IMG/VR virus record: IMGVR_UViG_3300047635_000036
Span: 1-60,640 of that record
Length of the DNA stretch: 60,640 bases
Direction: 5' to 3' (one strand)
Source: a virus
Lineage: Duplodnaviria; Caudoviricetes
Made by a program: the position numbers and the translations under genes. Below, piece after piece: positions 6,152 through 53,718 of the stretch (positions are counted from its first letter, which is position 1; each line of letters begins with the position of its first letter). The notes below the pieces were generated by a model. That model saw nothing but the letters and a program-made list of their open reading frames with translations. It made no database searches and had not been told where the DNA came from.

Positions 6152-6153
6152 GA

Positions 6154-16191: not shown

Positions 16192-16575
16192 GTGGCGAAT
16201 GCCGAGCGGCTGCTGGACGTACTGACGTTCCTGGCGGCGCACCCCGAGAGGCACGACCAGAACTTCTGGCTGAAGAAGCGGGACTGCGGCACGGTGGCGT
16301 GCCTGGCCGGGTGGGCCGTCCTGCGAAACGGGTACGTGGAACACTACGCGCCGGAAATCCCGGATTTCTTCCGTGGCGTGTATCGCTCCGACGACCCCCA
16401 TCAGGAGCTTCGCCACGTCTCCTACGTCGCCGAGGAGGTCCTCGGTCTCACACCCGACGAGGGTGCCCGGCTGTTCGACGAACAGAACACCCTCACGGAC
16501 CTCTGGCGCCTCGCCGACGAGTTCACCGACGGCGAGGTCAGCCGCCTGCTGGACGCGGGCTCGGTGACGGCGTGA
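16192..16575 (+). CDS. CGTxACLAG family protein, paralogue 4
   Basis: HPERHDQ..W...CGTVACLAGW...LF..QNTLTDLW. Confidence 0.8.
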   Translation: MANAERLLDVLTFLAAHPERHDQNFWLKKRDCGTVACLAGWAVLRNGYVEHYAPEIPDFFRGVYRSDDPHQELRHVSYVAEEVLGLTPDEGARLFDEQNTLTDLWRLADEFTDGEVSRLLDAGSVTA

Positions 16576-21398: not shown

Positions 21399-21650
21399 TC
21401 TACCGCCGGGGCTGGTTCCGTGCTAGCGTCGACTCGCACACCGAGAGAGCGTCGATGCGTCAAAGCGTTGCCGTCGCTGCGTGACCCAGGTTCTGGCGCA
21501 AAGGCCGTTCGGGAGGCTAAGGGCGGCTGTCTACCTCCTGACATGAACGCGTCCTGCGCGATCGGCGCTCGAGGAAGCTCGCGGCGGCCCGTCGGGTGGC
21601 CTCACGGGTCGCCGCGACCTCTCGCCAGACCGAAGGAAGGGAGTCCGACG

Positions 21651-22001
21651 ATGTTCTGCAAGCTCTTCTCCGCCCTGCTCGACTCGAGACCCGCCGAGAG
21701 CGGCGTCTTCCGAGGCGCGCGGCTGTCCGCAGCGCGCTCCGCCCTCGGTCCGCGCTACTCGATCACGTTCTCCCCAGCCGGCTACCGCAACGTCCAGTTG
21801 GACTGGATCGGCGTCCTGGACGGCGTGCCGCTCACCCCCGAGGAGGTCCACGTCGGGTTCCGGAAGTGGCTGGACACCGCGCCGCTCTCCGACGGCGGTG
21901 TCCCCGAACGGACGATCAGGGTCTGGATCCAGGGCGTCTACAGCGAGATCACCTTCCGCACGGACTGGGTCTCCGGCTTCTCCGTCCAGCGGGCCGGGTG
22001 A
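21651..22001 (+). CDS. Hypothetical protein
   Basis: RBS gaaggaagggag. Confidence 0.6.
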   Translation: MFCKLFSALLDSRPAESGVFRGARLSAARSALGPRYSITFSPAGYRNVQLDWIGVLDGVPLTPEEVHVGFRKWLDTAPLSDGGVPERTIRVWIQGVYSEITFRTDWVSGFSVQRAG

Positions 22002-22005
22002 CGGC

Positions 22006-22200
22006 GTGGCCCTGCACGTCCCCCTGCACGGCAACGTCCGCTGCGCGGCCTGCGAGCGGCCGGCCGGCGCGCTCTGGTTGTCCAACCTGGACGTCGAAGA
22101 CGGCCGGCGGGTGCGGTTCAACGAGATCACCCCCTGCGGGTGCCGCGTCTACCTGCCCCTCAACGACCCCCGCCCCCTGCCTCGTAGGGTGCGCCGGTGA
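22006..22200 (+). CDS. Small zinc-binding protein
   Basis: CAAC and PCGC. Confidence 0.5.
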   Translation: MALHVPLHGNVRCAACERPAGALWLSNLDVEDGRRVRFNEITPCGCRVYLPLNDPRPLPRRVRR

Positions 22201-22808
22201 GCACCGTCGCGGTCTGCGTACCGTCCATCCCGGTCCGGCGCGTCCAGCTCGCGGCGGCCCTGCGCACGGTCGCGCAGCAGACCCGGCTGCCTGAGCAGAT
22301 CCACGTCGAGGTCGACGTCGGACGCACCGGGGCGGCGCCCACCCGCAACCGGGCCTGGCGCCGCGCCGACACCGACTGGATCGCCTTCCTGGACGACGAC
22401 GACGAGCTCATGCCCGAGCACCTCGAGGTACTCCTGGACCACCGGGAGGGAGCCGACCTGGTCTATAGCTGGTTCCACCTCCCCGAGGCCGACGACCCCC
22501 TCGCGGTACCGGTGAACGGCGTGCTGCGGAGCCCCTTCGGCGTCGAGTTCGGGCCCGAGCAGCGCGACTACCTGATGACCGCGGGCAACTTCGTCCCGAT
22601 CACCGCGCTGGTGCGCCGCAGTCTCCTCGAGGAGGTCGACGGGTTCCCGATCCCCGGCACCGAGCGCTGGCCCAACGAGCACTGCGAGGACTGGGGCTGC
22701 TGGCGGGACATGCTCCAGGTCGGCGCGCGGTTCTGGCACGTCCCGCAGCGCACCTGGACCTGGCACCACCACGGCAGGAACACCAGCGGAAGGAACGACA
22801 GATGGTGA
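22197..22808 (+). CDS. Glycosyltransferase family 2
   Basis: VAVCVPS, AAPTRNRA, WIAFLDDDD, GF...EDW. Confidence 0.9.
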   Translation: MSTVAVCVPSIPVRRVQLAAALRTVAQQTRLPEQIHVEVDVGRTGAAPTRNRAWRRADTDWIAFLDDDDELMPEHLEVLLDHREGADLVYSWFHLPEADDPLAVPVNGVLRSPFGVEFGPEQRDYLMTAGNFVPITALVRRSLLEEVDGFPIPGTERWPNEHCEDWGCWRDMLQVGARFWHVPQRTWTWHHHGRNTSGRNDRW

Positions 22809-23509
22809 GCGTCCTGGTCCCCACCCGGGGCAGACCGGAGGGCGTCGAGCGGCTGCTCGAGTCCGCCTACGAACTCTGCGAGGGTCCGGTGGAGTTCGTG
22901 TTCTACGTCGACGACGACGACCCCCGGCGCTGGGAGACGCACCAGGTCATCGCGCAGTACGACGCCGCCACCGCCGTCGTCTTCGGAAAGCGGATCACGC
23001 TCTCCCGGATGTGGAACGCGTGCTACGAGCGCGCCACCCACGACCTGCTGATGCAGTGCGGCGACGACATCGTCTTCCGCACCCAGGGATGGGACGTGCG
23101 GTTCGCCGAGGCCTTCGAACAGTACTCCGACCGGATCGCCTTCGTGCACGGCGACGACGGGTTCCAGCACGAGCGCATCGGCACCCACGGCGTCCTGCAC
23201 CGCGACTGGGTCAGGACGGTCGGGTACTTCGTCCCGCCGCACTTCGCCAGCGACTACAACGACCTCTGGCTCACCGAGGTCGCCGACGCCCTGGGCCGAC
23301 GCGTCTACCTGCCCGACGTGCTCACCGAGCACATGCACCCGGTCGCCGGCAAGGGCGAGCTGGATCTCACTCACCAGGAGCGCCTCGAGCGTCACCGGGT
23401 CGAGGACTGCGACCGGATCTGGCGGGAGACCGCCGGCGAGCGCGCGGCCGACGTGACCAAGTTGCGCGCGGCCATCCTGCGACACCGGGGAATCGAGGTC
23501 CCGTCGTGA
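22802..23509 (+). CDS. Glycosyltransferase family 2
   Basis: VSVLVPTRGR, YVDDDD, MQCGDD, EHMH. Confidence 0.85.
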   Translation: MVSVLVPTRGRPEGVERLLESAYELCEGPVEFVFYVDDDDPRRWETHQVIAQYDAATAVVFGKRITLSRMWNACYERATHDLLMQCGDDIVFRTQGWDVRFAEAFEQYSDRIAFVHGDDGFQHERIGTHGVLHRDWVRTVGYFVPPHFASDYNDLWLTEVADALGRRVYLPDVLTEHMHPVAGKGELDLTHQERLERHRVEDCDRIWRETAGERAADVTKLRAAILRHRGIEVPS

Positions 23510-24204
23510 TCGGAGAAGACCCGACCTGGACGATCCTGGTCCCCACCCTCCAGCGGCGCGAGAGTCGGTTCGCGGTCCTGCGCGACGAGCTGCTGCGCCA
23601 GACCGAGCCCTACGACGGGCGGGTCCGCGTCTGCGCGCTGTGGAACCGCGGCCAGCGCGCCCTCGGCGAGCTGCGCCAGGCCCTGGTCACCTACGTCCTG
23701 AGCGACTACGTGTCCTTCGTGGACGATGACGACGAGGTCCCGTCCTACTTCGTCGAGGAGGTCGTCCGCGCGCTGGAGTCCTGGCCCGACCAGGTCGGCT
23801 GGCGGATGCAGTGTGTCCGGGACGGCGCGATGCTCAAGCCCACCTTCCACAGCGTCAGGTACGGCTCCTGGTACGAGGACGACGCGGGTTACTACCGAGA
23901 CGTCAGCCACCTCAACCCCGTGCGGCGCGCGCTGGCGCTCCAGTGCGACTTCCGGGAGGGCAGCCCCCCGGAGGACGTGGCCTGGGTCAAGCAGATGCGC
24001 GGGCTCGTCAAGACCGAGCAGGCCGTGCCCGACAGAGTCATGTACTACTACCGGTCGTCGTCGGTGGACAGCACCTGGCAGCTCGGGAGCGTCTCGCCGC
24101 CGACCGCCGAGGAACTGACCGCCGAGGCGCCCTACGTCGCCCACCGCGACTTCTTCTACCATCCGTGGTCCTACGGCCCGAAGAACTGGGAGTCCCGTGT
24201 CTGA
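23506..24204 (+). CDS. Glycosyltransferase family 2
   Basis: WTILVPT, YVSFVDDDD, EDVAW, YYYR. Confidence 0.85.
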   Translation: MIGEDPTWTILVPTLQRRESRFAVLRDELLRQTEPYDGRVRVCALWNRGQRALGELRQALVTYVLSDYVSFVDDDDEVPSYFVEEVVRALESWPDQVGWRMQCVRDGAMLKPTFHSVRYGSWYEDDAGYYRDVSHLNPVRRALALQCDFREGSPPEDVAWVKQMRGLVKTEQAVPDRVMYYYRSSSVDSTWQLGSVSPPTAEELTAEAPYVAHRDFFYHPWSYGPKNWESRV

Positions 24205-25156
24205 TCGAGTCCTCATCACCGGCGTCACCGGCTTCGTGGGCAGCCACGTCCTCGAGCGGCAGCTCCGGGTACCGGACCCCCCGTGCGTCGTCGGCGTCGG
24301 GTCGTTCCGGAGCAACGGCACCGCCGACCGTGTCCTGCACGCCCTCTCGGGCCGCCGCGACCTCTGCTACACGCAGCTCACGCACGACCTGACCGTGCCG
24401 ATGTCCCCACTTCAGCTACTTCAGTTGAACGGGGTGAACAGGATCATCCACGTCGCCTCGCGCTGCTCGGTCGACGAGAGCATCCGGGACCCCGAGTCGT
24501 TCGTCCGAAACAACGTCGACCTCCAGCTCACCGTGCTCGGGCTCGCCCGGGAGCTCGGCGTCGACCGGTTCACCCACCTGTCCACCGACGAGGTGTTCGG
24601 CCCCCACTCGCCGTCCACGCTCAACGACCACCGGCCGTCCAGCCCATACTCCGCGTCCAAGGCCGCCCAACTGGACCTGTGCGCCGCCTGGGCGACGACC
24701 TTCGGCGTGCCGGTCTCCGTGCTCACCAGCGTGAACATGTTCGGCGAGAGGCAGAGCCAGCTCGCGTTCATCCCCCGCCTGGTGCGCCTGATGCTGGCCG
24801 GCGAGCCGGTGACGGTGCACGTCAGCGACGGCGTGCCCGGCGGGCGCAACTACGTCTACGTCGGGGACGTGGCCACCCGGCTCATCGAGGTGTCCCAGTC
24901 CGAAACAGACGACCTGAGCCACGAGGTGATCTTCGGCGCGGCCTACGTGGATAACCTCGATCTCGCGCAGCAGGTGGCCAAGCTCCTGGACGTCGAGCCG
25001 AGGATCGACCTCGTGGAGGCCTCGGTCTCGCGCCCCGGCTACGACCACTCCTACGGCCTGTACGGGGACTACGGCGCGGAGTCGCTCACCCCGTTCGACG
25101 CCGGACTGCGGCGCACGGTCGAGTGGTTCGCGGAGCACCCGACGTGGCTGACGTAG
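24197..25156 (+). CDS. dTDP-glucose 4,6-dehydratase-like NAD-dependent epimerase/dehydratase
   Basis: GVTGFVG, SVDESI, STDEVFG, PSSPYSASK, NMFGERQ, RPG.D..Y. Confidence 0.85.
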   Translation: MSDRVLITGVTGFVGSHVLERQLRVPDPPCVVGVGSFRSNGTADRVLHALSGRRDLCYTQLTHDLTVPMSPLQLLQLNGVNRIIHVASRCSVDESIRDPESFVRNNVDLQLTVLGLARELGVDRFTHLSTDEVFGPHSPSTLNDHRPSSPYSASKAAQLDLCAAWATTFGVPVSVLTSVNMFGERQSQLAFIPRLVRLMLAGEPVTVHVSDGVPGGRNYVYVGDVATRLIEVSQSETDDLSHEVIFGAAYVDNLDLAQQVAKLLDVEPRIDLVEASVSRPGYDHSYGLYGDYGAESLTPFDAGLRRTVEWFAEHPTWLT

Positions 25157-25692
25157 ACGTCGACTGGCGCGAGGTCTACGACTGGGCCGGCTTGCAGGTG
25201 CGCCAACTCATCACGATGCGCTACGACCCGGCCGAGACCGTGCTGCTGGACGTCGGCGCCGGCCAGGGGAAGTACGCGCGGCTGCTGCCCGAGTACCGGG
25301 ACTTCGACGCGATCGAGGTCTGGGAGCCCAGCGTCAACCGCTACGCCCTACGCGACATCTACCGGATGGTGCACGTGGCCGACGTGTCGGACATGGTCCG
25401 CAGGCCTAGCTGGACCCAGCTCTACCAGGTGGGGATCCTTGGCGACGTCCTGGAACACCTCGAGGCGGAGGAGGCCGGCTACGCGCTGCGCTGCCTAGCG
25501 GCGCGCTGCGCGAGCCTCCTCGTGGTCGTCCCCTACCTCTACCCGCAGGGCGCGGAGGACGGTAACGAGCACCAGCGCCACCTCCAGGACGACCTGACCC
25601 CCGAGGTGATGGCTGTCCGTTACCCTGACCTCAAGTTGATCGCGCTCGAGACCCGCGACGGGCGACCGTTCAAGGGGCTCTACCGAGGGTAG
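25144..25692 (+). CDS. Class I SAM-dependent methyltransferase
   Basis: LLDVGAGQGKY, GDVLEHL. Confidence 0.85.
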   Translation: MADVDVDWREVYDWAGLQVRQLITMRYDPAETVLLDVGAGQGKYARLLPEYRDFDAIEVWEPSVNRYALRDIYRMVHVADVSDMVRRPSWTQLYQVGILGDVLEHLEAEEAGYALRCLAARCASLLVVVPYLYPQGAEDGNEHQRHLQDDLTPEVMAVRYPDLKLIALETRDGRPFKGLYRG

Positions 25693-25704
25693 GAGGGACG
25701 CCCC

Positions 25705-26934
25705 ATGGCGAACGTCGGGTGGGTCGGGCTGGGCAAGCTGGGGGCACCGTGCGCCGCTGCCCTGCAGTACTACGGCGAGCACGTGGTCTACGGCTACGAC
25801 CTGCGCGGGACCGACCCGGGTGACTACGTCTGGGCCGGGCAGCGGCCCGTCGAGCTCGTCGAGTCGATCGCCGACGTCGTGAAGCTCACCGACGAGGTCG
25901 TCTACGTCGCGGTCCAGACCCCCCACGCGCCGCTGTACGGCGGCGAGCGGGTGGCTCCGGAGCAGCGATTCGACTTCGAGTACGCCTACCTCGTCAACGC
26001 CGTCCGAGAGGTGTGCCTGGCGGCCAGGGTCCAGCGCAAGCACGTCACCGTCGCGGTCGTGTCTACCGTGCTCCCCGGTACCTTCGGCCGGTACCTGCGC
26101 CAGTTGGGCGACGAGTACGTCACCTTCGTCTACCACCCGTTCTTCATCGCCATGGGGACCGAGGTGGACGACTTCACGCGGCCCGAGATGGTCATCTACG
26201 GGACCGACCGGGACGGCGACCATGGGGTGATCGACGAGCTCTACTCCGAGATCCACGACGCCCCCGTGGCGAGCATGTCGATCGACAGCGCCGAGCTCGC
26301 GAAGGTCGCCTACAACACCTTCATCACGATGAAGATCGTCTTCGCGAACTCCCTGATGGAGATCTGCGAGGGTACCGGCGCGGACGTCGACGAGGTCACC
26401 GACGCGCTGGTCATGGGTACCCAGAGGATCACCTCGGGTCGGTACATGAGGGCGGGGATGGGCGACGGCGGGGGTTGCCATCCCCGGGACAACATCGCGC
26501 TCGCGGCGCTGGGAGAGCGCCTGGGCGTCTCGACGGCCCTGAACGAGTTCCTGATCCGCGCTCGGGAGGCCCAGACCGGCTGGATCGCCGACTTCGCGGT
26601 GCGCTGGATCCAGCAGACCGACATGTCCGCGGTCGTGCTCGGGCTGACCTACAAGCCGGACGTCCCGCTCACGGACGGTTCGCCCGCGCTGCTGCTGGTC
26701 TCGCTCCTGGAGGAGCGCGGCGTCGGCGTGAACGTCTACGACCCGGTCCTCGACCGGGAGGAGTCCCTCCAGCACTTCCTCGACCGGTTCGGTCCCCGGG
26801 TCTACGTGATCGCCACCGAGCACGCTCAGCTACTCCGCCAGACGTATCCTGCCGGCAGCGTGGTGATCGACCCGTTCGGTACCGTCACTCGCTTCCCGGA
26901 CGTCACCTACGTCACTCCGGGCCGCAAGGGGTGA
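25705..26934 (+). CDS. UDP-glucose/GDP-mannose 6-dehydrogenase family protein
   Basis: GLGKLG, VQTP, STVLPGT, AELAKVAYNT, GGGCHPRD (catalytic Cys), GLTYKPD. Confidence 0.9.
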   Translation: MANVGWVGLGKLGAPCAAALQYYGEHVVYGYDLRGTDPGDYVWAGQRPVELVESIADVVKLTDEVVYVAVQTPHAPLYGGERVAPEQRFDFEYAYLVNAVREVCLAARVQRKHVTVAVVSTVLPGTFGRYLRQLGDEYVTFVYHPFFIAMGTEVDDFTRPEMVIYGTDRDGDHGVIDELYSEIHDAPVASMSIDSAELAKVAYNTFITMKIVFANSLMEICEGTGADVDEVTDALVMGTQRITSGRYMRAGMGDGGGCHPRDNIALAALGERLGVSTALNEFLIRAREAQTGWIADFAVRWIQQTDMSAVVLGLTYKPDVPLTDGSPALLLVSLLEERGVGVNVYDPVLDREESLQHFLDRFGPRVYVIATEHAQLLRQTYPAGSVVIDPFGTVTRFPDVTYVTPGRKG

Positions 26935-27092
26935 GCGCGGTCGTCTGGGACCTCCTCGCCTCGGTCCTGTGGTTCGGGGCGTTCCTGACCTGCGTCGGCG
27001 TGCTGGTGAGGTACGCCCGGCGCTCTCGAGCCGACCGGCGCTCCCGGGACCACGGACTCGACGTGATCAAGGACCTCCAGGACGTGACCTAG
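26931..27092 (+). CDS. Small membrane protein
   Basis: GTGA overlap; one TM helix then basic tail. Confidence 0.5.
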   Translation: MSAVVWDLLASVLWFGAFLTCVGVLVRYARRSRADRRSRDHGLDVIKDLQDVT

Positions 27093-27102: not shown

Positions 27103-28830
27103 GTGACCGGTGACCAGGTGGACGTGGGGCAGCTCGCCGCCGCCGTCGCCCGGCACCTGGAGATGTACCAGCTCCGCCCGGCCACCTGGCGCCCCCAGCC
27201 GCACCAGGTCCCCCCGCCCGGTAGCTGGTACGGCTGGCTGCTCAACGCCGGCCGCGGGGCCGGCAAGACGGCCGCCGCCGCGCGCTACGTCTCCGCCCAC
27301 GTGCACGGGCCTCCCTGCCTGCCCGGACCAGTCCCGCACTGGGTCGGCATCATCGCCCCGACGCTCGGCGACGGCGTCACCGCCTGCTTCCAGGGACCCT
27401 CGGGCCTGGGTTCGTTCGACGAGAACGCGCGGCTGCTGCAGACCACCGGCGGCACCGTGGTTCGCTGGCAGAACGGTTCTCAGGCCAAGATGTTCGGCGC
27501 GCACTCCCAGGAGGACGTAGAGCGCCTCAGAGCGGGCGGCAATACCTCGCTCGCGGCCGGCACCTTGGTCCGGACGAAGACCGGCGAGGTCCCGATCGAG
27601 GACGTCCGGATGGGGGACCAGGTCTGGACCCGCAACGGGCTCCGCACGGTGCGGCGAGCCGGGCAGACCGGGGTCAAGCCTACCTGGCGCCTGACGACGC
27701 GGGCAGGTCGGGAACTTGAGCTGACCGGGGACCACGAGGTACTGGTGAGCGGACGCTGGGTCGCCGCCGAACTCCTGCGACCGGGCGACTCGCTCACCGA
27801 GTTGGACGAGGTCGCGAGTTGCGTGAACGAGGACCGCGTCCAGCCCGTCTACGACCTGTCCGTGGAGTACGACCACGAGTTCTTCGCCAACGGGATCCTG
27901 GTCTCCAACTGCCTGATCTGGGCAGAGGAACTGGCAGCCTGGCGCTACCTCGACGCGAGCTGGCAGCAGATGCGCTTCGGCCTGCGCAGCGGTCCCCGGC
28001 CGCACTGGGTGGCCAGCACCACCCCGAAACCGCGCGCCCTGATCAAGAAGCTGATCAAGCAGACCCCGCACAACGTCGTCGTCACGCACGCTACCACCGA
28101 CGACAACCCGCACCTGGAGGCGCACGTCCGCGCCGCCCTGGACGAGGAGTACGGCGGCCTGCAGATCGGCCAGCAGGAGCTCTACGCCGAGATCCTCGAG
28201 CAGGACGTGCACGCCCTCTGGCAACGCGACGACCTCAACGAGTACCGGCTCAAGGAGTCCCCGCCGCTGGTCCGGATCACCGTCGGGGTCGACCCGTCCG
28301 GCGGCGCCGGAGAGCAGGGCATCATCGTCGCCGGCAAGGCCTTCGAGGACTCCATCGCCAATGGGAAGGCCCAGCGCCTCGCGCACGGCTACGTGTTGGC
28401 CGACCAGACCTGCAGCCTTTCGCCGGACGGCTGGGGGCGTCGCGCCGTGCAGGCCGCGGTCGACTGGGAGGCAGACGACATCGTCGTAGAGATCAACTTC
28501 GGCGGGGACATGGCGATCTCCACGATCGCCGGCGCGGCCGAGGTCATGGGAATCTCCATTCCGATCCGGGAGACCCGGGCCTCCCGCGGCAAGCGCGTGC
28601 GGGCCGAGCCGGTGTCCGTCCTGTCCGCGCGCGGGCGCTGGCACCACGTCGGGCGCTATGAGCAGCTCGAGGACCAGCTCTGCACCTGGGTCCCTGACCA
28701 GGCTGACTACTCCCCCGACCGACTCGACGCCATGGTCTGGACCGGCTGGCACCAGAGGCTGGTCGGGACCTCCCTGCGCGCCCCCGGCAACTTCGGTGGC
28801 CTGGCCGTCGTCCGCTCAGTCATCTCGTAG
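27103..28830 (+). CDS. terL: Terminase large subunit containing a mini-intein
   Basis: Walker A GRGAGKT, Walker B-like LIWAEE, STTP, nuclease VGVDPSGG and SPDRLDA. Confidence 0.92.
   Translation: MTGDQVDVGQLAAAVARHLEMYQLRPATWRPQPHQVPPPGSWYGWLLNAGRGAGKTAAAARYVSAHVHGPPCLPGPVPHWVGIIAPTLGDGVTACFQGPSGLGSFDENARLLQTTGGTVVRWQNGSQAKMFGAHSQEDVERLRAGGNTSLAAGTLVRTKTGEVPIEDVRMGDQVWTRNGLRTVRRAGQTGVKPTWRLTTRAGRELELTGDHEVLVSGRWVAAELLRPGDSLTELDEVASCVNEDRVQPVYDLSVEYDHEFFANGILVSNCLIWAEELAAWRYLDASWQQMRFGLRSGPRPHWVASTTPKPRALIKKLIKQTPHNVVVTHATTDDNPHLEAHVRAALDEEYGGLQIGQQELYAEILEQDVHALWQRDDLNEYRLKESPPLVRITVGVDPSGGAGEQGIIVAGKAFEDSIANGKAQRLAHGYVLADQTCSLSPDGWGRRAVQAAVDWEADDIVVEINFGGDMAISTIAGAAEVMGISIPIRETRASRGKRVRAEPVSVLSARGRWHHVGRYEQLEDQLCTWVPDQADYSPDRLDAMVWTGWHQRLVGTSLRAPGNFGGLAVVRSVIS
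27547..27909 (+). mobile_element. 121-aa mini-intein (Hint domain, no homing endonuclease)
   Basis: Block A SLAAGTLV, block B LTGDHEVL, blocks F/G VYDLSV...FFANGILVSN followed by Cys+1. Confidence 0.9.
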
Positions 28831-28846: not shown

Positions 28847-29203
28847 GTGAATCTAGCCCAGTTCGGACTCGCCGGCGGGCTCGCGCTCGCACTGGTCGGG
28901 GTCATCGGCTACCTGCTGAACTCCAACCGCCAAGACCGCGCACAGCACCGTGAGATCGTCGCCGACCTGCGCGAGACGATCAAGAACAACGACGAGCGCT
29001 ACGAGAAGCGCATCCAGGACGTCGAGCAGCGCTCCCGAGAGCGGATCGCCGAGCTGGAGAAGCGCTGCGACGTGCTGGAGCTCGAGGTCCAGACCGAGCG
29101 CAGCCAGCGGCTGACCGCCGAGTACACCGTGGCGACCGAGCGGCGTCGCGCCGCCGAGGCCGAGTACCAACTGACCCGCCTGCAGGCGGGAGGACCGCCG
29201 TGA
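28847..29203 (+). CDS. Membrane-anchored coiled-coil protein (lysis cassette)
   Basis: N-terminal TM and heptad-rich tail. Confidence 0.7.
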
Positions 29204-29856
29204 CAGATCCGAGATCGGCGCGCCGTCGCGACGCCGGCGACGCGCCCTACCAGCTTCGACACCGGTCCCAGACCGTCATCGGGATTCTGGCCCTCCTGCT
29301 CCTCGCCGGCATCCTCTACCTCGTCTTCCAGGCCGTCCAGACCGCGCACGTCGCGCAGCAGGACCAGGCCTCCCTCGCCCAGCGCGTCACCGAGGCCTGC
29401 GCCAACGGCGGTCCGGCCGCCGTCGAGCTGCACCGCGTCGGGGCCTGCCAGCAGGCCGCCGGGATCCCCGGACCGCCGGGGGCGCCCGGGGCTCCAGGAC
29501 CCGAAGGTCCGAGCGGCCCGCGCGGGGAGCCGGGACTGCCCGGTCCCCCCGGACCCGCCGGCGGCGCCGGTCCGCCGGGACCGGCCGGGTCCGCCGGCCT
29601 GCAGGGGGACCCCGGGTCGCAGGGAGCCGCCGGGGAGCCCGGTCCGGCGGGGCCGGCCGGTTCCCCCGGGGAGCCTGGGGCGAGCGGCGCGGCGGGACCG
29701 CCGGGACCGCCGGGACCCGCCGGATCCCCCTGCCCGGAGGGCCAGCAGCTCGAGCCGTACGTCTACCCGGACGGGCGGGCGGGGAGCCGCTGCGTCGAGC
29801 CGGTGGTGCCCCCGCCGCCGTCGAGTAGACTATCGAACCAGCGTCGAGTGAAGTGA
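29200..29856 (+). CDS. Membrane-anchored collagen-like protein
   Basis: TM helix, Cys pair, about 30 uninterrupted Gly-X-Y triplets, Cys pair. Confidence 0.85.
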
Positions 29857-29864
29857 GGTCCAGC

Positions 29865-30314
29865 ATGGCCGGAGGTACCCCCCGCAGCGCCCCGAGTCGC
29901 GCCAAGACGCCCGAGCCCGAGGCCGCGCCGACGACCCCCTCCGGCGTCTCTCCCCGCCCCGTCGAGGAGATCGAGCTGACGGTCCTCGAGACGCCGAGCC
30001 TCGAGGTCGAGGAGGCCCCGCCGCCGCCGCTGCCGCCGGAGCAGCCGCCGGCCCCCGAGAAGCTCCCGCGCCTCAACGAGCGCCTCAGCACGATCCACAT
30101 CCACAACGCCGTCAACGACGGCTACCCGTCGCACGCCATCGCGCTGGTCCAGGGCGCCCTCACCGGCGCCGGACACGACCCCGGCCCCTACGACGGGGTC
30201 GGCGGCCGGCGGACCCGGGCCGCGCTGGCCGAGTTCGCCGCCGCGCGCGGCATCGAGCTCACCGACCTGGACTCCCTCGCCGAGACACTCGACGCGCTCG
30301 GCTTCGACGTCTGA
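29865..30314 (+). CDS. Protein with peptidoglycan-binding-like domain
   Basis: VQGALTGAGHDPGPYDGVGGRRTRAAL. Confidence 0.7.
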   Translation: MAGGTPRSAPSRAKTPEPEAAPTTPSGVSPRPVEEIELTVLETPSLEVEEAPPPPLPPEQPPAPEKLPRLNERLSTIHIHNAVNDGYPSHAIALVQGALTGAGHDPGPYDGVGGRRTRAALAEFAAARGIELTDLDSLAETLDALGFDV

Positions 30315-30338
30315 CCGACACGACCGAAGGAGCACGAC

Positions 30339-30578
30339 GTGAACGACTACCTGACCCTGGCCTTCTGGAAGGGCGCCCTCGACAGGGCGATCAAGTCCGT
30401 CGCGCAGACCCTGCTCCTGCTGTGGGGCGCGGACGGCGCCGTGCACATCCTGCACGTCGACTGGACCGCCGCGCTCGAGGTCGGCGCCGGCGCCGCCGTC
30501 CTCTCCCTGCTCACGTCGCTGCTCTCCAGCACCACCGGGGACAGGGGCACCACGTCCATGATCCCCGGCGCGAAGTAG
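30339..30578 (+). CDS. Holin (r1t-like)
   Basis: FWKGALDRAIKSVAQT...VDW...AAVLSLLTS. Confidence 0.85.
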   Translation: MNDYLTLAFWKGALDRAIKSVAQTLLLLWGADGAVHILHVDWTAALEVGAGAAVLSLLTSLLSSTTGDRGTTSMIPGAK

Positions 30579-30585
30579 CCCGGAC

Positions 30586-30927
30586 GTGTCCCTCCCGCTC
30601 CTGCTGGTCCTGATGACGCTCGCGACCTACCGGATCACCCGCCTGGTCGTCGAGGACACCTTCCCGCCGGTGGCCTGGGTCCGGGAGCGCCTCACCGGAC
30701 ACGAGCCCACCCTCTCCGAGCCCTACCGGGTGGCCCGGTGGAAGATCGTCCCCGCGTGGATCGGCGACCTCGTGTCGTGCTGCTGGTGCACCTCGGTGTG
30801 GGTCTCCGCCGGCGTCGTCGCAGCAGTCGATCTTACGGTGGGGCTACCGTTACCCTTACTCGCGTGGGGCGCGGTCGCCGCCGCCGCCGCGTGGGTGTCC
30901 CACCTCGAGGAGTTCTTCGTCCGCTAG
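30586..30927 (+). CDS. DUF1360-like membrane protein
   Basis: LATYRITRLVVED...LVSCCWCTSVW. Confidence 0.8.
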   Translation: MSLPLLLVLMTLATYRITRLVVEDTFPPVAWVRERLTGHEPTLSEPYRVARWKIVPAWIGDLVSCCWCTSVWVSAGVVAAVDLTVGLPLPLLAWGAVAAAAAWVSHLEEFFVR

Positions 30928-30937: not shown

Positions 30938-32755
30938 GTGGCGTGGCGCCTGCTCGGACCCCACTGGACGAAGCCGCGACGCCGCGCACCGTCGACCTCC
31001 CCGACCGCGCCCGAGGTGCTCACCTCCGCCGCGCTGGTCACCAACGCGGTCAAGGCCGGCCAGCGCGTCCTCGTCCCCACCTACGAGAACTGGCAGCGCG
31101 AGCTCTGGACCTACTTCGAGGAAGTGGGCGAGTTCAGCACCACCGTGAGCTGGCGCTCCGGCATGATGTCCCGGGTCCGGCTCCGCGCGGCGCGCATGCA
31201 ACCCGACACCGACGAGCCGAAGATCGTGGACAGCGGCCCGGCCGCGGACCTGGTCAACGAGCTCTTCGGCGGCATCATCGGACAGGCCGAGGGTATGCGG
31301 ACGATGACGACCCTCCTCGACGTCTGCGCGGAGGCGTGGGTAGTCGGCGAGACCGTCGGCGGCGTCACGACCTGGCAGGTGCGCTCCACCGACGAGATCC
31401 GAGCCGGCAGGTCCCGGGACGGCGAGTACGAGATCGTCGACGACGCCGCGTCCAGCCTCGGCCGGCTGATCTGGCGGTCGCTCGCCGCCGACCACATGGT
31501 CACCAGGATCTGGAACCCGCACCCCCGGGTACGCCACCTCCCGCACGCCCCGGCCAAGGCCGCGCGCTCCGCGCTGCGCGAGCTCAGCCTGGTCAACCGG
31601 CACATCCAGGCCCAGTACCTGTCTCGGCTCGCCTCGGCCGGCATCATCGTCCTGCCGGACGAGATCACCTTTCCGGTGCGCCCGGAGTTCGAGGACGCCC
31701 CCGACCCCTTCATCGCGGAGTGGATCGAGACCGCCAAGCAGGCCATCCAGACCCCGGGTACGGCGGCTGCGGCCGTGCCGATCCCCATGCGCCTGCCCGG
31801 CGAATACGTCGACAAGGTGAAGCACATCGACTTCACCCTCAAGCTCGACGAGCGGATCATCGAGAAGCGCGACTCGGCCCGCCACCAGCTAGCGACCCAG
31901 CTCAACGTCCCGGCCGACCTGCTCTTCGACACCAGCAAGGTCAACCACTGGGGCCTCTGGCAGCTCGAGGACGTGGCGATCAAGGCCTACATCGCGCCGG
32001 ACGCCGAGGTCATCTGCGGGGGCCTGACCACCAGCTACCTGCACCCCCGACTGCGCGCGAAGGGCGTCGAGGACTGGGCGCAGTGGATCGTCTGGTACGA
32101 CACCTCCGAGATCCAGGTGCGCCCCGACCGGTCGGCCAACGCCCTCAAGGCCTACCAGTCCCTGGAGATCTCCGGCAAGGCGCTGCGCCGCGAGACCGGG
32201 TTCGACGAGGACGACGCCCCCACCGACGACGAGCTCACCCAGATGGCGCTGCGCCGACTCGCGGTCAACCCACAGGTCGGGTTCCTCGCCCTCCAGGGAC
32301 TCACCGGCTTCCAGCCCCTGGGCGGCGCCGCGCCGGCGCCCGGGGCGGAGACCCCGCCCAACCCGGTCACGCCGGAGCCGCGACCCGTCGAGCCCGTCGA
32401 CCCGGGAGCGCCCCCGGTCAGCAAAGACGCGGAACCCCAGGCACCCGGCAAGCGGCTCAACGGGTCGACCCGCGACGCGCTCACCGTGCTCCAGGCCAAC
32501 ACCGACCACGTCATCGAGTTCGGCGTCAGCGGCTGGAAGCTCCGGCACCCTCTGCTGTGCGAGCCGCACGTCTTCTCCTGCCCGTTCACCCACGTGACGT
32601 CTCGCGGGGTGACCGCGCACCCCGGCACGTCCGGCAGCTACGAGTGCCGGCTGTCGGACACCGGCGAGCTCGTCATCGGGACGCGCGTGTTCCCCCGAGA
32701 GGTCGACACCGTCGAGGGGACCCCGAGGGCGGTGAACGGTGCCCGACACCGCTGA
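30938..32755 (+). CDS. Portal protein
   Basis: Position and size; WQRELW..VGE, IWNPHPR, SRLASAGI, NHWGLW motifs of cluster B-like portals. Confidence 0.85.
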   Translation: MAWRLLGPHWTKPRRRAPSTSPTAPEVLTSAALVTNAVKAGQRVLVPTYENWQRELWTYFEEVGEFSTTVSWRSGMMSRVRLRAARMQPDTDEPKIVDSGPAADLVNELFGGIIGQAEGMRTMTTLLDVCAEAWVVGETVGGVTTWQVRSTDEIRAGRSRDGEYEIVDDAASSLGRLIWRSLAADHMVTRIWNPHPRVRHLPHAPAKAARSALRELSLVNRHIQAQYLSRLASAGIIVLPDEITFPVRPEFEDAPDPFIAEWIETAKQAIQTPGTAAAAVPIPMRLPGEYVDKVKHIDFTLKLDERIIEKRDSARHQLATQLNVPADLLFDTSKVNHWGLWQLEDVAIKAYIAPDAEVICGGLTTSYLHPRLRAKGVEDWAQWIVWYDTSEIQVRPDRSANALKAYQSLEISGKALRRETGFDEDDAPTDDELTQMALRRLAVNPQVGFLALQGLTGFQPLGGAAPAPGAETPPNPVTPEPRPVEPVDPGAPPVSKDAEPQAPGKRLNGSTRDALTVLQANTDHVIEFGVSGWKLRHPLLCEPHVFSCPFTHVTSRGVTAHPGTSGSYECRLSDTGELVIGTRVFPREVDTVEGTPRAVNGARHR

Positions 32756-35646: not shown

Positions 35647-37437
35647 GTGGCCGACCAGCCTGCGGAGCTTGTGAGCGTCCCCGCTGACCTGACTCTCGTC
35701 AGTGACGACGACCTGTCCAACCTCGAGACGACCGTCACCGCCGAGTTCGACCGCGTCAACGCGGCGGACGTGACCCCCGAGGCGCTCGAGTACGCGATGC
35801 AGCTCGCGGACCACGCCGACCGCATCCGGGCCGAGCTCGCCGCCCGGCGCGCCCGCACCGAGCAGGCCGAGGCCCAGAAGCGCGCCGCGATGCTGAAGAC
35901 CCAGCAGACGCTCCAGGCCCGCATGGACCGGGGCAACGGCGGCGAGGGCGGCGGCGGCACCGGCCCGCTCGGCGGGGAGAGCGGCGGGGCGGTCGACGCC
36001 GAGGCGATCGCCGCGGCCGCCGCCCGCGGCGCCACCGCGGCCCTGGTGGCCGCCCTCGGTGACCGGGTGGTCGGCCGGAGCCTGGTCCAGGTGACTGAGC
36101 GCGCCACCGACAGCCTGAGCGCCGCGCGGCGCTTCCAGCCCGCGACCAAGGCCCCCGAGAAGCGACTCACGGTCACCGCGAGCGTGGACATCCCGGGCGT
36201 GGCGCGCGGCGAGGGCATCAACAACCTCGAGCACCTCACCGAGATCGTGCGCCGCAAGGCGCGGTCGATGCCGGTCACCAACGAGAGCCCGAACCAGCAG
36301 CTCGTGGCGAGCATCCGCAACGAGTTCGCGCACACGGTGGACGACCGGACCTCTCCCGGGCAGATCGACGAGCTGTTCCGCTTCCTCACCTCGGACGACA
36401 AGAAGAACTCCCTGGTGGCCGCCGGCGGCTGGTGCGCGCCGTCGGAGATCCGCTACGACTTCTTCAACATCGCCTGCGCGGACGGCCTGGTGGACCTGCC
36501 GACCTTCGGCGTGTCCCGCGGCGGCGTGCAGGTCCCGGTGTCCCCCTCCCTGGCCGACGTGCTGGGGACTAACCCGAACCAGGCGTTCGGCGGGTTCTCC
36601 GTGGCGTTCAACGTCAACTCGATCCCGTGGCTGTGGACCGAGGCGAGCGACATCGCGGCCGTCACGGGCTCCCCGACCAAGCACTGCATCCGGGTGCCCT
36701 GCCCGACGTTCACCGACCGGCGGCTGGAGTGCTACGGCATCTGCGTCACGGCGGGCAACCTGGCCGACGACGCCTACCCCGAGAGCACTGCCAACTTCAT
36801 TCGGCTCATGATGGCCGCGCACGCGCACGCCATGAACGGCCAGATCATCAACACGATGCTCAGCCTGTGCTCGGCGGCCGTCTCCACCGGCGGGTTCGCG
36901 GCCACCACCAACCCGGCCTACCAGCAGATCTACGGCGGCATCTCGCTCGGCGTGGTGGACTACCGGGCGCGCTACGGCATGTGCGAGGACGACGTCCTCG
37001 AGGTCGTCGCCCCGTTCTGGCTGAAGTCGGTCATCCGCGCGGATCTCGCGCACCGCACCGGCATCGACCCCGACCAGGTCTCCAACGCCGAGATCGACGG
37101 CTGGTTCACCGACCTGAACGTCCGCGTCCAGTGGGTCAACGACTGGCAGGTGCGCGGCTCCGGCCAGTTCGGCAACGCCACCCCGATGACCGCGTGGCCG
37201 ACCACCGCCGACGTCATGATCTACGCCGCCGGCACCTTCCTGCTGGGCAACGGCCTCTCGCTGGACCTCGGCGTGGTCCGGGACAGCGCGCTCAACGCGA
37301 CCAACGACCACACCGCGGCCTGGACCGAGGAGTGCCACCTGGTCACCCGAGTCGGCCACGAGGCCCGGCGCTACTCGATCGCCTTCAACGTGGTCGGCCG
37401 CACCGGCTCGGCCAACATCACGGGCGCCAACCTGTAG
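35647..37437 (+). CDS. Major capsid (hexamer) protein with N-terminal scaffold-like region
   Basis: Coiled-coil N-terminus; LVAAGGWCAPSEIRYD, SRGG, LDLGVVRDSALN..ND. Confidence 0.85.
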   Translation: MADQPAELVSVPADLTLVSDDDLSNLETTVTAEFDRVNAADVTPEALEYAMQLADHADRIRAELAARRARTEQAEAQKRAAMLKTQQTLQARMDRGNGGEGGGGTGPLGGESGGAVDAEAIAAAAARGATAALVAALGDRVVGRSLVQVTERATDSLSAARRFQPATKAPEKRLTVTASVDIPGVARGEGINNLEHLTEIVRRKARSMPVTNESPNQQLVASIRNEFAHTVDDRTSPGQIDELFRFLTSDDKKNSLVAAGGWCAPSEIRYDFFNIACADGLVDLPTFGVSRGGVQVPVSPSLADVLGTNPNQAFGGFSVAFNVNSIPWLWTEASDIAAVTGSPTKHCIRVPCPTFTDRRLECYGICVTAGNLADDAYPESTANFIRLMMAAHAHAMNGQIINTMLSLCSAAVSTGGFAATTNPAYQQIYGGISLGVVDYRARYGMCEDDVLEVVAPFWLKSVIRADLAHRTGIDPDQVSNAEIDGWFTDLNVRVQWVNDWQVRGSGQFGNATPMTAWPTTADVMIYAAGTFLLGNGLSLDLGVVRDSALNATNDHTAAWTEECHLVTRVGHEARRYSIAFNVVGRTGSANITGANL

Positions 37438-38397: not shown

Positions 38398-39078
38398 GTG
38401 GCTGGCATCTGCGCGACGCCCATCAAGGGCACCCACATGCGCATCGTCAAGGTCGACGCCTGCGGCATCCCCGTGACCGGCGCCTCGGCCCTGTGCATCG
38501 TCACCAAGGGCTTCGTCCAGGTGAACCAGGACCCCGACTACGAGGCCGGCCAGGAGTTCCTGGAAAAGAACGCCGACGGCGACCTGTGCGTCAACCAGAA
38601 GGACAAGCCGCTGCTCAAGCGGATGAAGCTGACCGTCGACTACTGCGAGATCGACCCGGTCGCGGCCGCCTACGTGCTCGACGCCCGCCTCCTGGACACC
38701 GTGAGCCCCGCCGTCACCGGCACCGGCTTCGCGTTCATGGAGGGCGCCAACGACAACCGCTTCTCGATGGAGGTCTGGCAGCGCGTGGCCGGGTCCGGCG
38801 CCTGCGACCCGTCCGGCGCGCAGCGCTACATCTACAACGCCTGGCCCAACGTCGGCAACGCCCAGGTCGGCGCCTACTCCATCCAGAACGGCAAGGCCAC
38901 CCTGCAGTTCGTCGCGGAGACCAACGCCGCGGCCAACCAGTGGGGCCACGGGCCGGGCGTCACCACCTGGCTGCCGACCGGCCGCGTGGTGAACGAGGCC
39001 GGCCTGGACCACTGGCTGTGGAACATCACGACCGTGGCGCTGCCGAACGCCGCCTGCGGTCCCACCACCCTGACGTAA
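38398..39078 (+). CDS. Major tail (tube) protein
   Basis: RIVKVDACG, KNADGDLC, FSMEVW. Confidence 0.8.
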   Translation: MAGICATPIKGTHMRIVKVDACGIPVTGASALCIVTKGFVQVNQDPDYEAGQEFLEKNADGDLCVNQKDKPLLKRMKLTVDYCEIDPVAAAYVLDARLLDTVSPAVTGTGFAFMEGANDNRFSMEVWQRVAGSGACDPSGAQRYIYNAWPNVGNAQVGAYSIQNGKATLQFVAETNAAANQWGHGPGVTTWLPTGRVVNEAGLDHWLWNITTVALPNAACGPTTLT

Positions 39079-52472: not shown

Positions 52473-52694
52473 CTACGCCGGCCTCCAGTAGTGCCTCTTG
52501 CCGATCGAGGCGTGCCGGACGAGCCCCTCGGCCTGCAGCCGCCGCAGGGCCAGGTAGACCACGCTGGGCGAGACCTTCAGCGCCTCGGCCAGCTCGTACT
52601 TCGTCATGTCGGGCACCTCCCGCAGGACCTGAAGCAGCCGCTCGTCACGCTGGATCGTCTCCTGGGGCCTCGGTCGGCCACGCCGCCTCGCCAT
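52473..52694 (-). CDS. Helix-turn-helix DNA-binding protein
   Basis: RRGRPR; MTKYELAEALKVSPSVVYLALRRLQAEGLV. Confidence 0.8.
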   Translation of the reverse strand: MARRRGRPRPQETIQRDERLLQVLREVPDMTKYELAEALKVSPSVVYLALRRLQAEGLVRHASIGKRHYWRPA

Positions 52695-53718
52695 CGCCCG
52701 CCTCCTTCCGGGGGGTCGGGCTGGGGGCGCTCGCGCGCCACCGGCCCACCTGGTGCTCGACCCAGGCGTAGGTGTGCGCGACCCCGCCGACCAGCGCGGT
52801 GCCGGGCTCCCAGTCCAGGTACTTGCGGATGAGGGTGTTGTCCGACCCGCGGCTGCGCACGCCGTACGGGGCGTCCGGCAGGTAGCGCCGCTCGACGGTC
52901 ACCTCGGCCGCGTACTCGATCGTCGAGAGGAGCTCGTCGACGGTGTGCCGGTCGGCGGAGCCGAGGTTGAGCGGCTCGTCCACCTCGGACCGCGCGATCC
53001 GCAGGATGCCCTCCACGCAGTCGTTGGAGTGGGTGAACGAGCGGACTTGGGTGCCGTCCCCCCACACCGCGACGTGGTCCGCGAAGCCGAGCTTGACCTC
53101 GGCGACCTGCCGGCACAGCGCGGTCACCACCTGCTCCCGTCCGCCGCGCCACGGGGAGTAGGGGCCGTAGACGGCGTGCAGCCGGGCGACGCGGGTCTGC
53201 AGGCCGCCCTCCTCCTGGAAGTGCCGGCACAGCCGCTCGCCGAACAGGCGCTCCCAGCCGTGGCCGCCCTCGGCCTCGGCCGGGTAGGCGTCCTGCTCGC
53301 GCAGCGCCGCCGCGTCGCCCTCGCGCTGCAGGTGCCGCGGGTACACCGCGGCCGACGACGCGTAGAAGACGCGTCCCCAGCCGTAGTGCGCTGCCGCCTC
53401 CAGCACGTTCACCGTCGCCTTGATCGACATCGCGGGGGCGAGCTGGTTGTTGCTGACGTAGCCGATGCCGCCGGTGTCCGCCGCCAGGTGGTAGACCTCG
53501 TCGAACGGTCGACGCTCCATGCTCGCCAGCAGCTCCAGGGCCTGCGGCTCGGAGACGTCCATCAGGTCGAAGGTCCTGGCGCTGAGGTGGTGGTCCTGCC
53601 ACCAGTCGGCGCGGGACTTGCGGTCGACGGCGACCACCTCGTGGCCGTCCTTGGCGAGGCGGCCGACGAGGTGGCCGCCGACGAAGCCGCCGGCGCCGAG
53701 TACGAGTGCGTAGCTCAC
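52645..53718 (-). CDS. GDP-mannose 3,5-epimerase-like NAD-dependent epimerase
   Basis: GAGGFVG, HLAADTGGIGY, YASSAAVYP, DAYPA, HGWER (for YxxxK), WGDGTQVRSF, GVRSRGSDN. Confidence 0.85.
   Translation of the reverse strand: MSYALVLGAGGFVGGHLVGRLAKDGHEVVAVDRKSRADWWQDHHLSARTFDLMDVSEPQALELLASMERRPFDEVYHLAADTGGIGYVSNNQLAPAMSIKATVNVLEAAAHYGWGRVFYASSAAVYPRHLQREGDAAALREQDAYPAEAEGGHGWERLFGERLCRHFQEEGGLQTRVARLHAVYGPYSPWRGGREQVVTALCRQVAEVKLGFADHVAVWGDGTQVRSFTHSNDCVEGILRIARSEVDEPLNLGSADRHTVDELLSTIEYAAEVTVERRYLPDAPYGVRSRGSDNTLIRKYLDWEPGTALVGGVAHTYAWVEHQVGRWRASAPSPTPRKEAGDGEAAWPTEAPGDDPA

Follow-up and report, generated by a model that had tools for sequence, protein, structure and literature searches.

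Here we describe a glycan pathway carried by a phage, IMG/VR virus record IMGVR_UViG_3300047635_000036, the whole of which (60640 bases, ~70% G+C, CheckV completeness estimate 63%) was analysed and is termed the window below. Directly before the large terminase gene, terL, lies a six-gene cassette (22197-26934) that encodes three family 2 glycosyltransferases (GT2a, GT2b and GT2c), an extended short-chain dehydrogenase/reductase (SDR1) predicted to be an RmlB-type 4,6-dehydratase of nucleoside diphosphate (NDP)-hexoses, a probable class I S-adenosylmethionine (SAM)-dependent methyltransferase and an NDP-sugar 6-dehydrogenase. A seventh gene, for a probable GT-B glycosyltransferase, follows the last tail gene. 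An initial annotation, made from the letters of the window, had joined these seven genes and a GDP-mannose 3,5-epimerase (GME)-like gene at 52645 into one pathway with its own nucleotide-sugar enzymes. All eight genes are found in place. The data support a glycan pathway of several enzymes that the phage carries, including sugar-nucleotide-modifying enzymes and a methyltransferase of its own, and the pathway is conserved in related phages. The reading that we prefer, which may equally prove right or wrong, is that it constitutes a late-expressed protein glycosylation system that decorates proteins of the virion, with the major capsid and tail tube proteins as the most likely targets.

G001, the complete relative closest to the window, is a record of 86650 bases that has direct terminal repeats and a completeness rating of 100%; it is colinear with the window, which corresponds to about 1.6-64 kb of it. 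With gene limits set by third-position G+C, successive cassette genes overlap by 7, 4, 8 and 34 nt, a 12-nt gap then precedes the dehydrogenase gene, and 168 nt separate the latter from terL. By the same measure GT2c starts at a GTG at position 23506, where the frame switches, and not with the longest open reading frame (ORF) from 23011. No membrane-type hydrophobic stretch was seen in any of the seven proteins, and no transmembrane (TM) segment was found in GT2a. For the motifs given below, 6-10 orthologues from relatives (50-92% identity) were aligned. Against G001, the ratio of non-synonymous to synonymous substitution (dN/dS) is 0.13-0.28 for the seven genes and 0.12-0.21 for portal, capsid and tail tube. 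Thus, the seven genes are under purifying selection comparable to that on portal and capsid.

Each of the three GT2 proteins matches PF00535 above its cut-off of 23.3 bits and has a conserved DxD-type motif, which places them by sequence in family GT2 (GT-A fold). The DDDD motif of GT2a, within ‘AFLDDDDEL’, is invariant in 8/8 orthologues, as are the DDDD and GDD motifs of GT2b (8/8) and the ‘FVDDDDE’ of GT2c (9/9); dN/dS is 0.18, 0.28 and 0.13, respectively. GT2a is a distant paralogue of GT2c. Homologues are found in cultured phages: GT2c is 40% identical to Pas33 of the Actinoplanes phage phiAsp2, and GT2b is 27% identical to the N-terminal domain of its Pas34 (E 3e-18), while gp108 of mycobacteriophage Che8 is matched by GT2c (26% identity over 202 aa, E 4e-19) and by GT2a (E 1.3e-5). 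The cultured-phage records that match GT2c number 61, and all are of actinophages (39 of Mycobacterium, 20 of Gordonia and 2 of Actinoplanes).

The 362-aa protein encoded after the tail genes is a probable GT-B enzyme, as judged from its homologues. PF13524 scores 21.4 bits in the window protein, below the cut-off of 25, and matches 36 of 40 homologues at E<=0.01, with PF13692 matching 3 and PF13439 2. Neither sequence nor profile searches gave a meaningful PDB match; hhalign aligns the protein with gp5 of the Streptomyces phage Zuko at 99.5% probability. Its gene (dN/dS 0.17) is present in 5/5 complete or near-complete relatives, and 1095 metagenomic homologues were obtained at E<=1e-5 among 8000 candidates scored; the 120 listed are 54-88% identical and come from contigs of up to 98 kb. 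A profile scan of one genome per species returned two short matches only (19 and 42 residues), with no sign of prophage copies. The orthologue in relative G004 (L022, G004:C1:9679-13482) is a 746-aa ORF into which an intein of about 370 aa is inserted; the intein has LAGLIDADG-type motifs and separates the Lys from the Ser of the invariant motif NAAKSWLKPLE, and its insertion site likely marks this motif as an active-site element. We know of no other intein in a phage glycosyltransferase, although no search aimed at one was made.

Two enzymes would supply modified sugar donors. The eight top PDB matches of SDR1 are all dTDP-glucose 4,6-dehydratases, and its best NCBIfam match is again a dTDP-glucose 4,6-dehydratase; TIGR01181 scores 138.8 bits, under the equivalog cut-off of 365.1. 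Its extended-SDR Rossmann motif ‘TGVTGFVGSH’ and its ‘STDEVFG’ and ‘YSASK’ segments align with the motifs of 8du1 and 2hun, and STDEV-G and Y-x-x-x-K are invariant in 9/9 orthologues (dN/dS 0.20). The Thr-Asp-Glu triad and YxxxK are what we take to be the catalytic residues of RmlB-type dehydratases. SDR1 is the only SDR common to the window and the four complete relatives, and its nearest named cellular homologue, a Streptomyces dTDP-glucose 4,6-dehydratase, is 39% identical. We conclude that SDR1 represents a divergent, phage-lineage clade with the motifs of the RmlB type, a predicted 4,6-dehydratase of dTDP- or UDP-glucose. Assignment as a UDP-glucuronate decarboxylase or a 4-epimerase was rejected, the corresponding PDB matches being weaker (54-70 vs 95 bits) and the Thr-Asp-Glu motif fitting a dehydratase. 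From these assignments we infer an NDP-4-keto-6-deoxyhexose as its product, to be completed by host dTDP-rhamnose enzymes or by an intrinsic reductase activity.

The dehydrogenase contains all three UDPG_MGDP_dh domains, and its catalytic-Cys motif ‘GGGCHPRD’ is invariant in 10/10 sequences (dN/dS 0.14). TIGR03026 scores 164.2 bits, under the cut-off of 189.8. Its best PDB matches are the UDP-glucose dehydrogenases 4a7p and 3vtf (102-104 bits, best 103.6), with GDP-mannose dehydrogenase at 91.1 bits; the protein is thus most like a UDP-glucose 6-dehydrogenase, and its predicted product would be UDP-glucuronic acid, or else GDP-mannuronic acid. The best match in 201 Streptomycetaceae genomes is 37% identical. 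In phages, tblastn (E<=1e-5) matched 32 records, those listed being mostly cyanophages and pelagiphages. A nucleotidyltransferase scored above cut-off in none of five genomes (the window and the four complete relatives), and the pathway must therefore start from host NDP-glucose. Thus, the proposal that the phage makes its own donors has to be narrowed: it would modify NDP-sugars, remodelling those of the host, and would not build them from scratch.

The remaining cassette gene encodes a 189-aa protein for which no family was found at threshold in Pfam, NCBIfam or PHROG (PF13489 14.6 bits vs a cut-off of 27). ‘LDVGAGxGKY’ (‘LDVGAGQGKY’ in the window) and ‘GDVLEH’ are invariant in 9/9 orthologues (dN/dS 0.17), whose profile matches the PDB methyltransferase 3cc8 (E 4.7e-5) and, more weakly, sugar N-methyltransferases. 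By tblastn the protein also matches annotated class I SAM methyltransferases of large actinophages (2e-7 to 6e-14). The label of SAM methyltransferase is reasonable, though unproven. The families given in the initial annotation are therefore upheld by family or profile matches for the GT2 trio, SDR1 and the dehydrogenase, and, less firmly, through orthologue profiles and homologues for the methyltransferase (no family at threshold) and the GT-B protein (PF13524 sub-threshold).

The GME-like gene of the replication arm fared differently. In the alignment of its product with the Arabidopsis enzyme, anchored by the K178R mutation of entry 2c54, Cys145 (Arabidopsis numbering) is replaced by Ala, Tyr174 by His, Lys178 by Arg and Lys217 by Gln; these four we take to be the catalytic residues of GDP-mannose 3,5-epimerase. 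The product was also aligned with 120 homologues (121 sequences). The window protein and its nine closest homologues (70-92% identical) all have the His, Arg and Gln, and the Cys position is Ala in nine of these ten and Ser in one. Cys, Tyr, Lys and Lys are retained in the remaining 110-111 of the 121, depending on position. Among five complete or near-complete relatives only one has the gene, whose dN/dS is 0.17. With all four catalytic residues replaced and the gene rare in relatives, an epimerised-sugar donor, as first suggested, is not credible, and the gene probably stands outside the core pathway; its product may be a pseudoenzyme or may have rewired chemistry. It offers a clean natural case of a sugar-nucleotide enzyme in which four catalytic residues have been replaced under continued purifying selection. 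The related idea, that donor synthesis is placed with the early genes, is likewise not supported: both credible donor enzymes are inside the cassette beside the transferases, and the replication arm holds only this doubtful gene.

Table 1 Positions in the window of the glycan genes, the terminase gene, the candidate acceptors and the GME-like gene
Feature	Position	Strand	Supporting matches and remarks
GT2a, 203-aa GT-A/GT2 glycosyltransferase	22197..22808	+	PF00535 45.1 bits, E 1.3e-11; phrog_14775 ‘glycosyltransferase’ 3.3e-32
GT2b, 235-aa GT2 glycosyltransferase	22802..23509	+	PF00535 26.2 bits; phrog_14945 2.2e-43
GT2c, 232-aa GT2 glycosyltransferase	23506..24204	+	PF00535 25.6 bits; phrog_14775 2.1e-39
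SDR1, 319-aa extended SDR, RmlB type (predicted NDP-hexose 4,6-dehydratase)	24197..25156	+	PF01370 126 bits; PF16363 106 bits
189-aa probable class I SAM-dependent methyltransferase with an uncertain start codon	25123..25692	+	Orthologue profile and tblastn
NDP-sugar 6-dehydrogenase, 409 aa	25705..26934	+	PF00984 72.5, PF03720 37.6, PF03721 32.8 bits, each above cut-off
Large terminase TerL	27103..28830	+	Terminase_6N, 6C, Hint and intein domains; start of virion module
Major capsid protein, candidate glycan acceptor (inferred)	35647..37437	+	phrog_777 5.7e-126
Major tail (tube) protein, candidate glycan acceptor (inferred)	38398..39078	+	phrog_792 6.1e-37
Probable GT-B (GT1/GT4-like) glycosyltransferase, 362 aa	48155..49243	+	phrog_7162 ‘glycosyltransferase’ 8.7e-30; last rightward gene of virion block
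GME-derived SDR with replaced catalytic tetrad	52645..53718	-	238 bits to Arabidopsis GDP-mannose 3,5-epimerase 2c54

The gene set is conserved within a lineage of 84-101 kb uncultured phages. Using the dehydrogenase, 11 viral loci were found, and in 9 of them the cassette order recurs at 50-92% identity, which is beyond chance. These nine loci fall into three groups of three: in one the full six-gene set runs up to terL, in another a contig end truncates the locus and in the last the arrangement is different; one of the nine (L003) lacks the methyltransferase. In the alternative arrangement (G002 and L003-L005), the set forms one block directly after the tail genes, in the order GT2b, a 1.2-kb insert, GT2c, SDR1, methyltransferase, dehydrogenase, GT2a and GT-B. 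Because it is contiguous with the cassette there, the GT-B gene, distant in the window, belongs with the other six. The insert that separates GT2b from GT2c (G002:C1:55359-56595, L031; 57% G+C) may be a mobile element; it holds a low-GC3, Cys-rich ORF of 182 aa and an ORF of 271 aa, neither with an NCBIfam match. Genes at 21420-22200, adjoining the cassette, were considered as core members and rejected, as G001 alone shares them, apart from weak matches in L010.

More widely, glycosylation genes are present in 7/7 relatives with portal identity of at least 43% (G001-G005, G207 and G208) and in 0/3 at 31-34%. The two relatives with 43% portal identity, G207 and G208, carry the GT-B gene at 49-50% identity and two GT2 genes elsewhere. 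Neither GT-B nor GT2 genes were found in the three more distant ones (G209, G210 and G211, the last only 68% complete). The glycosylation trait thus tracks the phage lineage. Together, the shared order, the single-block arrangement, the GT-B gene in 5/5 relatives and the pairing of SDR1- and GT-B-like genes in Zuko indicate that the seven genes are functionally linked. Cellular homologues reach only 37-39% identity at their nearest, which means that the cassette was not copied recently from a host. The outcome that would have told against the initial proposal, a cassette nearly identical to a host locus and missing from related phages, is not what we find: relatives keep the cassette. A limited full-text search, in which supplements were not covered, found no description of the seven-gene set, and the text of the Jabs preprint has no passage on glycans. 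We conclude that the set is real, conserved and more elaborate than the proven mycobacteriophage examples, although conceptually anticipated by them.

These results bear on whether the genes assemble a glycan at all. They could instead be auxiliary metabolic genes that redirect host sugar-nucleotide pools or glycosylate a host protein or small molecule, the particle itself staying unglycosylated. The consumption of host NDP-glucose without a phage nucleotidyltransferase would suit such a role, and many phages carry isolated UDP-glucose dehydrogenase or epimerase genes to which no role has been assigned. Here, however, four transferases and a methyltransferase have been co-inherited with two donor enzymes through rearrangements, which points to a defined, assembled glycan, and purifying selection on them equals that on structural genes. 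We regard the metabolic explanation as improbable.

In the virion glycosylation that we prefer, the phage would take host NDP-glucose, and the 6-dehydrogenase would oxidise UDP-glucose to UDP-glucuronic acid. The RmlB-type SDR would convert dTDP- or UDP-glucose to a 4-keto-6-deoxy intermediate, from which host RmlC/RmlD-type enzymes, or the SDR itself, would produce a 6-deoxyhexose. The three soluble GT2 enzymes and the GT-B enzyme would then, in the cytoplasm, link sugars into a short hetero-oligosaccharide on virion subunits that are not yet assembled or are being assembled, and a sugar would be O-methylated by the SAM methyltransferase. We favour this reading because of the homology to Che8 gp108, phiAsp2 Pas33/34 and Zuko gp4/gp5 and because the genes bracket the virion module: in both arrangements they flank it and point the same way, preceding terL at the head of the module in one and following the last tail gene in the other.

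Features of the putative acceptors are suggestive only. The capsid protein ends in ..SANITGANL, and an (N/Q)L ending is present in all 7 relatives with glycosylation genes and different in relatives without them; the tail tube protein ends in ..WNITTVALPNAACGPTTLT, with ‘PTTLT’ at the end in 4/4 close relatives. Separately, an N-I-T tripeptide is located near the C-terminus of both proteins (..SANITGANL, 37380-37437; ..WNITT..PTTLT, 39000-39078), and ‘WNITT’ is kept in 6/6 tail tubes read from relatives with glycosylation genes, for which chance or shared ancestry are possible explanations. A collagen-like 218-aa protein encoded between terL and portal was rejected as a conserved acceptor, being absent from relatives that keep the cassette (their terL-portal gap is about 0.7 kb in L007-L010).

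A number of observations weigh against virion decoration. Firstly, the proven systems differ at the acceptor. The Che8 capsid ends in ..KTGS and its tail tube in ..SDGS, the Corndog capsid in ..LVGS and its gp49 in ..KGDS (G-S or D-S in 4/4), so that the C-terminal Ser of these proteins is absent from the window capsid (..TGANL) and tail tube (..PTTLT). That the terminal Ser after G or D is the acceptor in the proven phages is inferred from the mention of ‘C-termini’ in the available part of PMC12619734. Secondly, in blastp the window proteins show no similarity to Che8 gp109 or any of Corndog gp35-39, and Che8 gp110 is matched at no better than E 0.009, although Che8 gp110 and Corndog gp38 are the transferases named as essential in the excerpted text of a citing paper (PMC11600133 / PMC12363180). 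Thirdly, no phage-encoded reductase partner for the 4,6-dehydratase was found in the window and the four complete relatives. Fourthly, late expression of the cassette is deduced from gene position only, since promoter and terminator scans were uninformative: no promoter was found, and the two terminator-like sites compare with 1.0 +/- 1.0 in shuffles, i.e. background (hairpins were seen only at 26977-27018 and 49598-49638). In Che8, Corndog and Myrna the glycans themselves have been demonstrated, whereas the window system is known from its genes alone.

Fifthly, TM-less GT2 enzymes can act on membrane lipid-linked acceptors, so that solubility leaves envelope targets possible. Indeed, GT2 enzymes of envelope pathways are peripheral and TM-less like those of the window, and an alternative explanation is that the enzymes modify a host envelope glycopolymer or lipid-linked precursor, such as a teichuronic-acid-like polymer or another wall glycan. 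A receptor would thereby be destroyed or masked, blocking superinfection or loss of progeny on debris, or lysis would be aided. A divergent endolysin gene and a holin gene are near the cassette, and the weak NCBIfam matches of GT2a and the dehydrogenase are to teichuronic acid TuaG and TuaD and to colanic acid/exopolysaccharide transferases, all far below cut-offs. The cassette, however, has no priming phosphoglycosyltransferase, flippase, polymerase or membrane protein by Pfam, NCBIfam, PHROG and TM scans, and its genes bracket the virion module, not early or lysis genes. No integrase was found in the window or the four complete relatives (0/5), which makes lysogenic conversion unlikely. The nearest cultured-phage homologues, moreover, come from phages with shown or proposed virion glycosylation, as far as the accessible portions of the reports on them indicate. 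We consider an envelope target unlikely.

Lastly, a divergent ThyA-family protein (63-71 bits vs cut-offs of at least 108) is encoded by three of the four complete relatives: G002 (G002:C1:83411-84283, L033), G005 (G005:C1:33510-34373, L035) and G003. The motif ‘PYDVFMF’ in G002 and G005, the two that were read, has Asp at the position of the thymidylate synthase Asn, a replacement that we take to be a marker of dCMP specificity. The protein could be a dCMP-specific hydroxymethylase or methylase, hinting at modified cytosine in these three phages. It therefore also counts in favour of another target, phage DNA, in which the transferases would place a glycan made from phage-modified donors on a hydroxymethylated base and so evade restriction. 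Some phage glycosyltransferases are known to hypermodify DNA, with a variety of glycans (Pyle et al. 2024, as cited in the consulted section of PMC12619734), and Bacillus phage SP-15, which has hypermodified thymine according to an excerpt of PMC5977210, encodes a UDP-glucose dehydrogenase that is among the tblastn matches of the window enzyme. Nevertheless, the window and G001 both carry the full cassette and have no ThyA-family gene by hidden Markov model (HMM) or tblastn searches, and 10 right-arm ORFs of G001 that were scanned include no recognisable base-modification gene. The glycan genes are placed among the late virion genes and away from the replication genes, which occupy the opposite strand, and the homologues of GT2c include gp108 of Che8, for which virion glycosylation has been shown according to the part of the literature at hand. 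DNA as the target thus appears to us very unlikely.

A bolder form of virion glycosylation can be formulated, which we put forward tentatively and consider doubtful. A widespread, integrase-less actinophage lineage would encode a near-autonomous pathway in which UDP-glucuronate and a 6-deoxyhexose donor, both made by the phage, are used by four transferases, together with O-methylation, to give capsid and tail tube an acidic, methylated hetero-oligosaccharide. The acceptor would be unlike the C-terminal Ser of the mycobacteriophages, with ..PTTLT, ..NL and N-I-T as candidates, and the GME paralogue would separately be a GDP-sugar-binding pseudoenzyme or a rewired enzyme used early.

The strongly supported genes of the window run rightward from about 20.8 to 49.2 kb: a small HTH protein, the glycan cassette, terL, a holin and small membrane proteins, and then the virion genes (portal, a MuF-like 891-aa protein, capsid, tail tube, adaptor, tape measure and tail proteins, with the GT-B gene last). 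Leftward replication genes follow (WhiB-like protein, Sak4, exonuclease, helicase and family A polymerase), and a GH25 endolysin gene lies on the minus strand, divergent from the cassette. The WhiB gene and the base composition indicate an actinobacterial host. TerL contains a mini-intein of 121 aa (27547-27909) with Hint and intein-splicing domains and the junctions ..GGNT|S...VSN|C; TerL proteins of relatives align as residues 1-150 and about 268-575 without the insert, and that of G001, 97% identical, is also intein-free.

Other parts of the window are noted here as observations. The terL-portal interval (28847-30927) encodes a 118-aa protein whose N-terminal TM segment is accompanied by a coiled-coil-like stretch, the 218-aa collagen-like protein (G-x-y repeats) with an N-terminal TM anchor, a Pro-rich 153-aa protein, the holin (phrog_443, 2.9e-21) and a 113-aa membrane protein; in more distant relatives this gap is only about 0.7 kb. 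Residues 6-175 of the 891-aa protein encoded after portal (32739-35414) match ‘RNA ligase’ PHROGs (2e-25), in addition to a MuF/minor-head-like region, and an RtcB ligase is also encoded in the right arm of G001. At 6000-12200, a region of 76-79% G+C, rightward ORFs of 179-537 aa have no Pfam family match and are 36-66% identical to their G001 counterparts, far below the rest of the genome in conservation. At 15464-16575 there is a small family of paralogous genes, whose 157- and 139-aa products are about 30-35% identical to each other; G001 has at least 5 tandem copies (16.3-20.0 kb), and the copies in G005 adjoin the cassette.

Glycosylation of phage particles has been shown only recently and so far only in a few mycobacteriophages, where it shields virions from antibodies (PMC11600133, PMC12363180, as available in excerpt). 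The locus described here suggests that virion glycosylation is a broader and chemically richer trait, with seven genes, two sugar-nucleotide-remodelling enzymes and a lineage abundant in metagenomes. Should the virion be what carries the glycan, effects on adsorption, environmental stability and immune recognition would follow, and the genes would supply new protein-glycosylating enzymes. As cultured Zuko carries the SDR and GT-B core beside terL, the central question is open to bench testing now.

Mycobacteriophages provide the closest proven parallel. Virion O-glycosylation by Che8 gp108-110, by Corndog gp35-38 and in Myrna was reportedly described by Freeman et al. in 2023. In Che8, Corndog and Myrna, phage-encoded glycosyltransferases add glycans to capsid and tail tube, and cluster O phages have an O-methyltransferase gene followed by three transferase genes, according to the accessible text of PMC11600133 and PMC12363180. 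In its annotation, Corndog has the O-methyltransferase and three glycosyltransferases between portal and capsid, and the transferase genes of Che8 are at the right genome end, adjoining the terminase across the cohesive ends. The window shares with both the tandem of small soluble GT2-type transferases beside terminase or virion genes, and with Corndog a methyltransferase beside three glycosyltransferases, analogous to that of the window though without detectable homology. It differs from both in the addition of an NDP-sugar 6-dehydrogenase, a 4,6-dehydratase and a GT-B enzyme.

Other actinophages have parts of the set. In Zuko (82 kb), gp4, annotated as a nucleotide-sugar epimerase/dehydratase, is 32% identical to SDR1 with the same MSTDEVFG and YSASK motifs, and its gene and that of gp5, annotated as a glycosyltransferase, are neighbours just upstream of terL with the small gene 6 between. 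Unlike the window, the first 10.8 kb of the Zuko record hold the two-gene pair only, with no GT2 trio, methyltransferase or dehydrogenase, and the virion module is unrelated (no blastp match for terL, portal or capsid). In phiAsp2, Pas33 (GT2c-like) and Pas34 (with its GT2b-like N-terminal domain) are encoded after the major head gene. At 596 aa, Pas34, whose annotation is putative O-methyltransferase, fuses glycosyltransferase-like and methyltransferase parts that are separate genes in the window; the stretch read has no annotated donor-modifying enzymes, and the functions of Pas33/34 are putative, being taken from annotation. Microbacterium cluster EC phages (Quhwah, Merry and Sunny) have two genes for glycosyltransferases together with one for a UDP-glucose dehydrogenase, as stated in the available extracts of PMC7302621 and PMC12614000, and so resemble the window as lytic actinophages that pair transferases with this enzyme, in a smaller set. 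They are not among the 30 listed of the 32 records matching the window dehydrogenase.

UDP-glucose dehydrogenase and 4,6-dehydratases are among the sugar-nucleotide enzymes encoded by chloroviruses and mimiviruses. As is predicted for the window, these viruses encode both sugar-nucleotide-modifying enzymes and transferases for a glycan of their own structural proteins, and their capsid glycosylation is described as autonomous in the consulted portions of PMC5408694 and PMC7019647. They are giant viruses of eukaryotes, whereas the window phage needs host NDP-glucose, and the likeness drawn here is one of function. Should the bolder reading above be true, the lineage would be a bacterial-virus counterpart of chlorovirus and mimivirus self-glycosylation.

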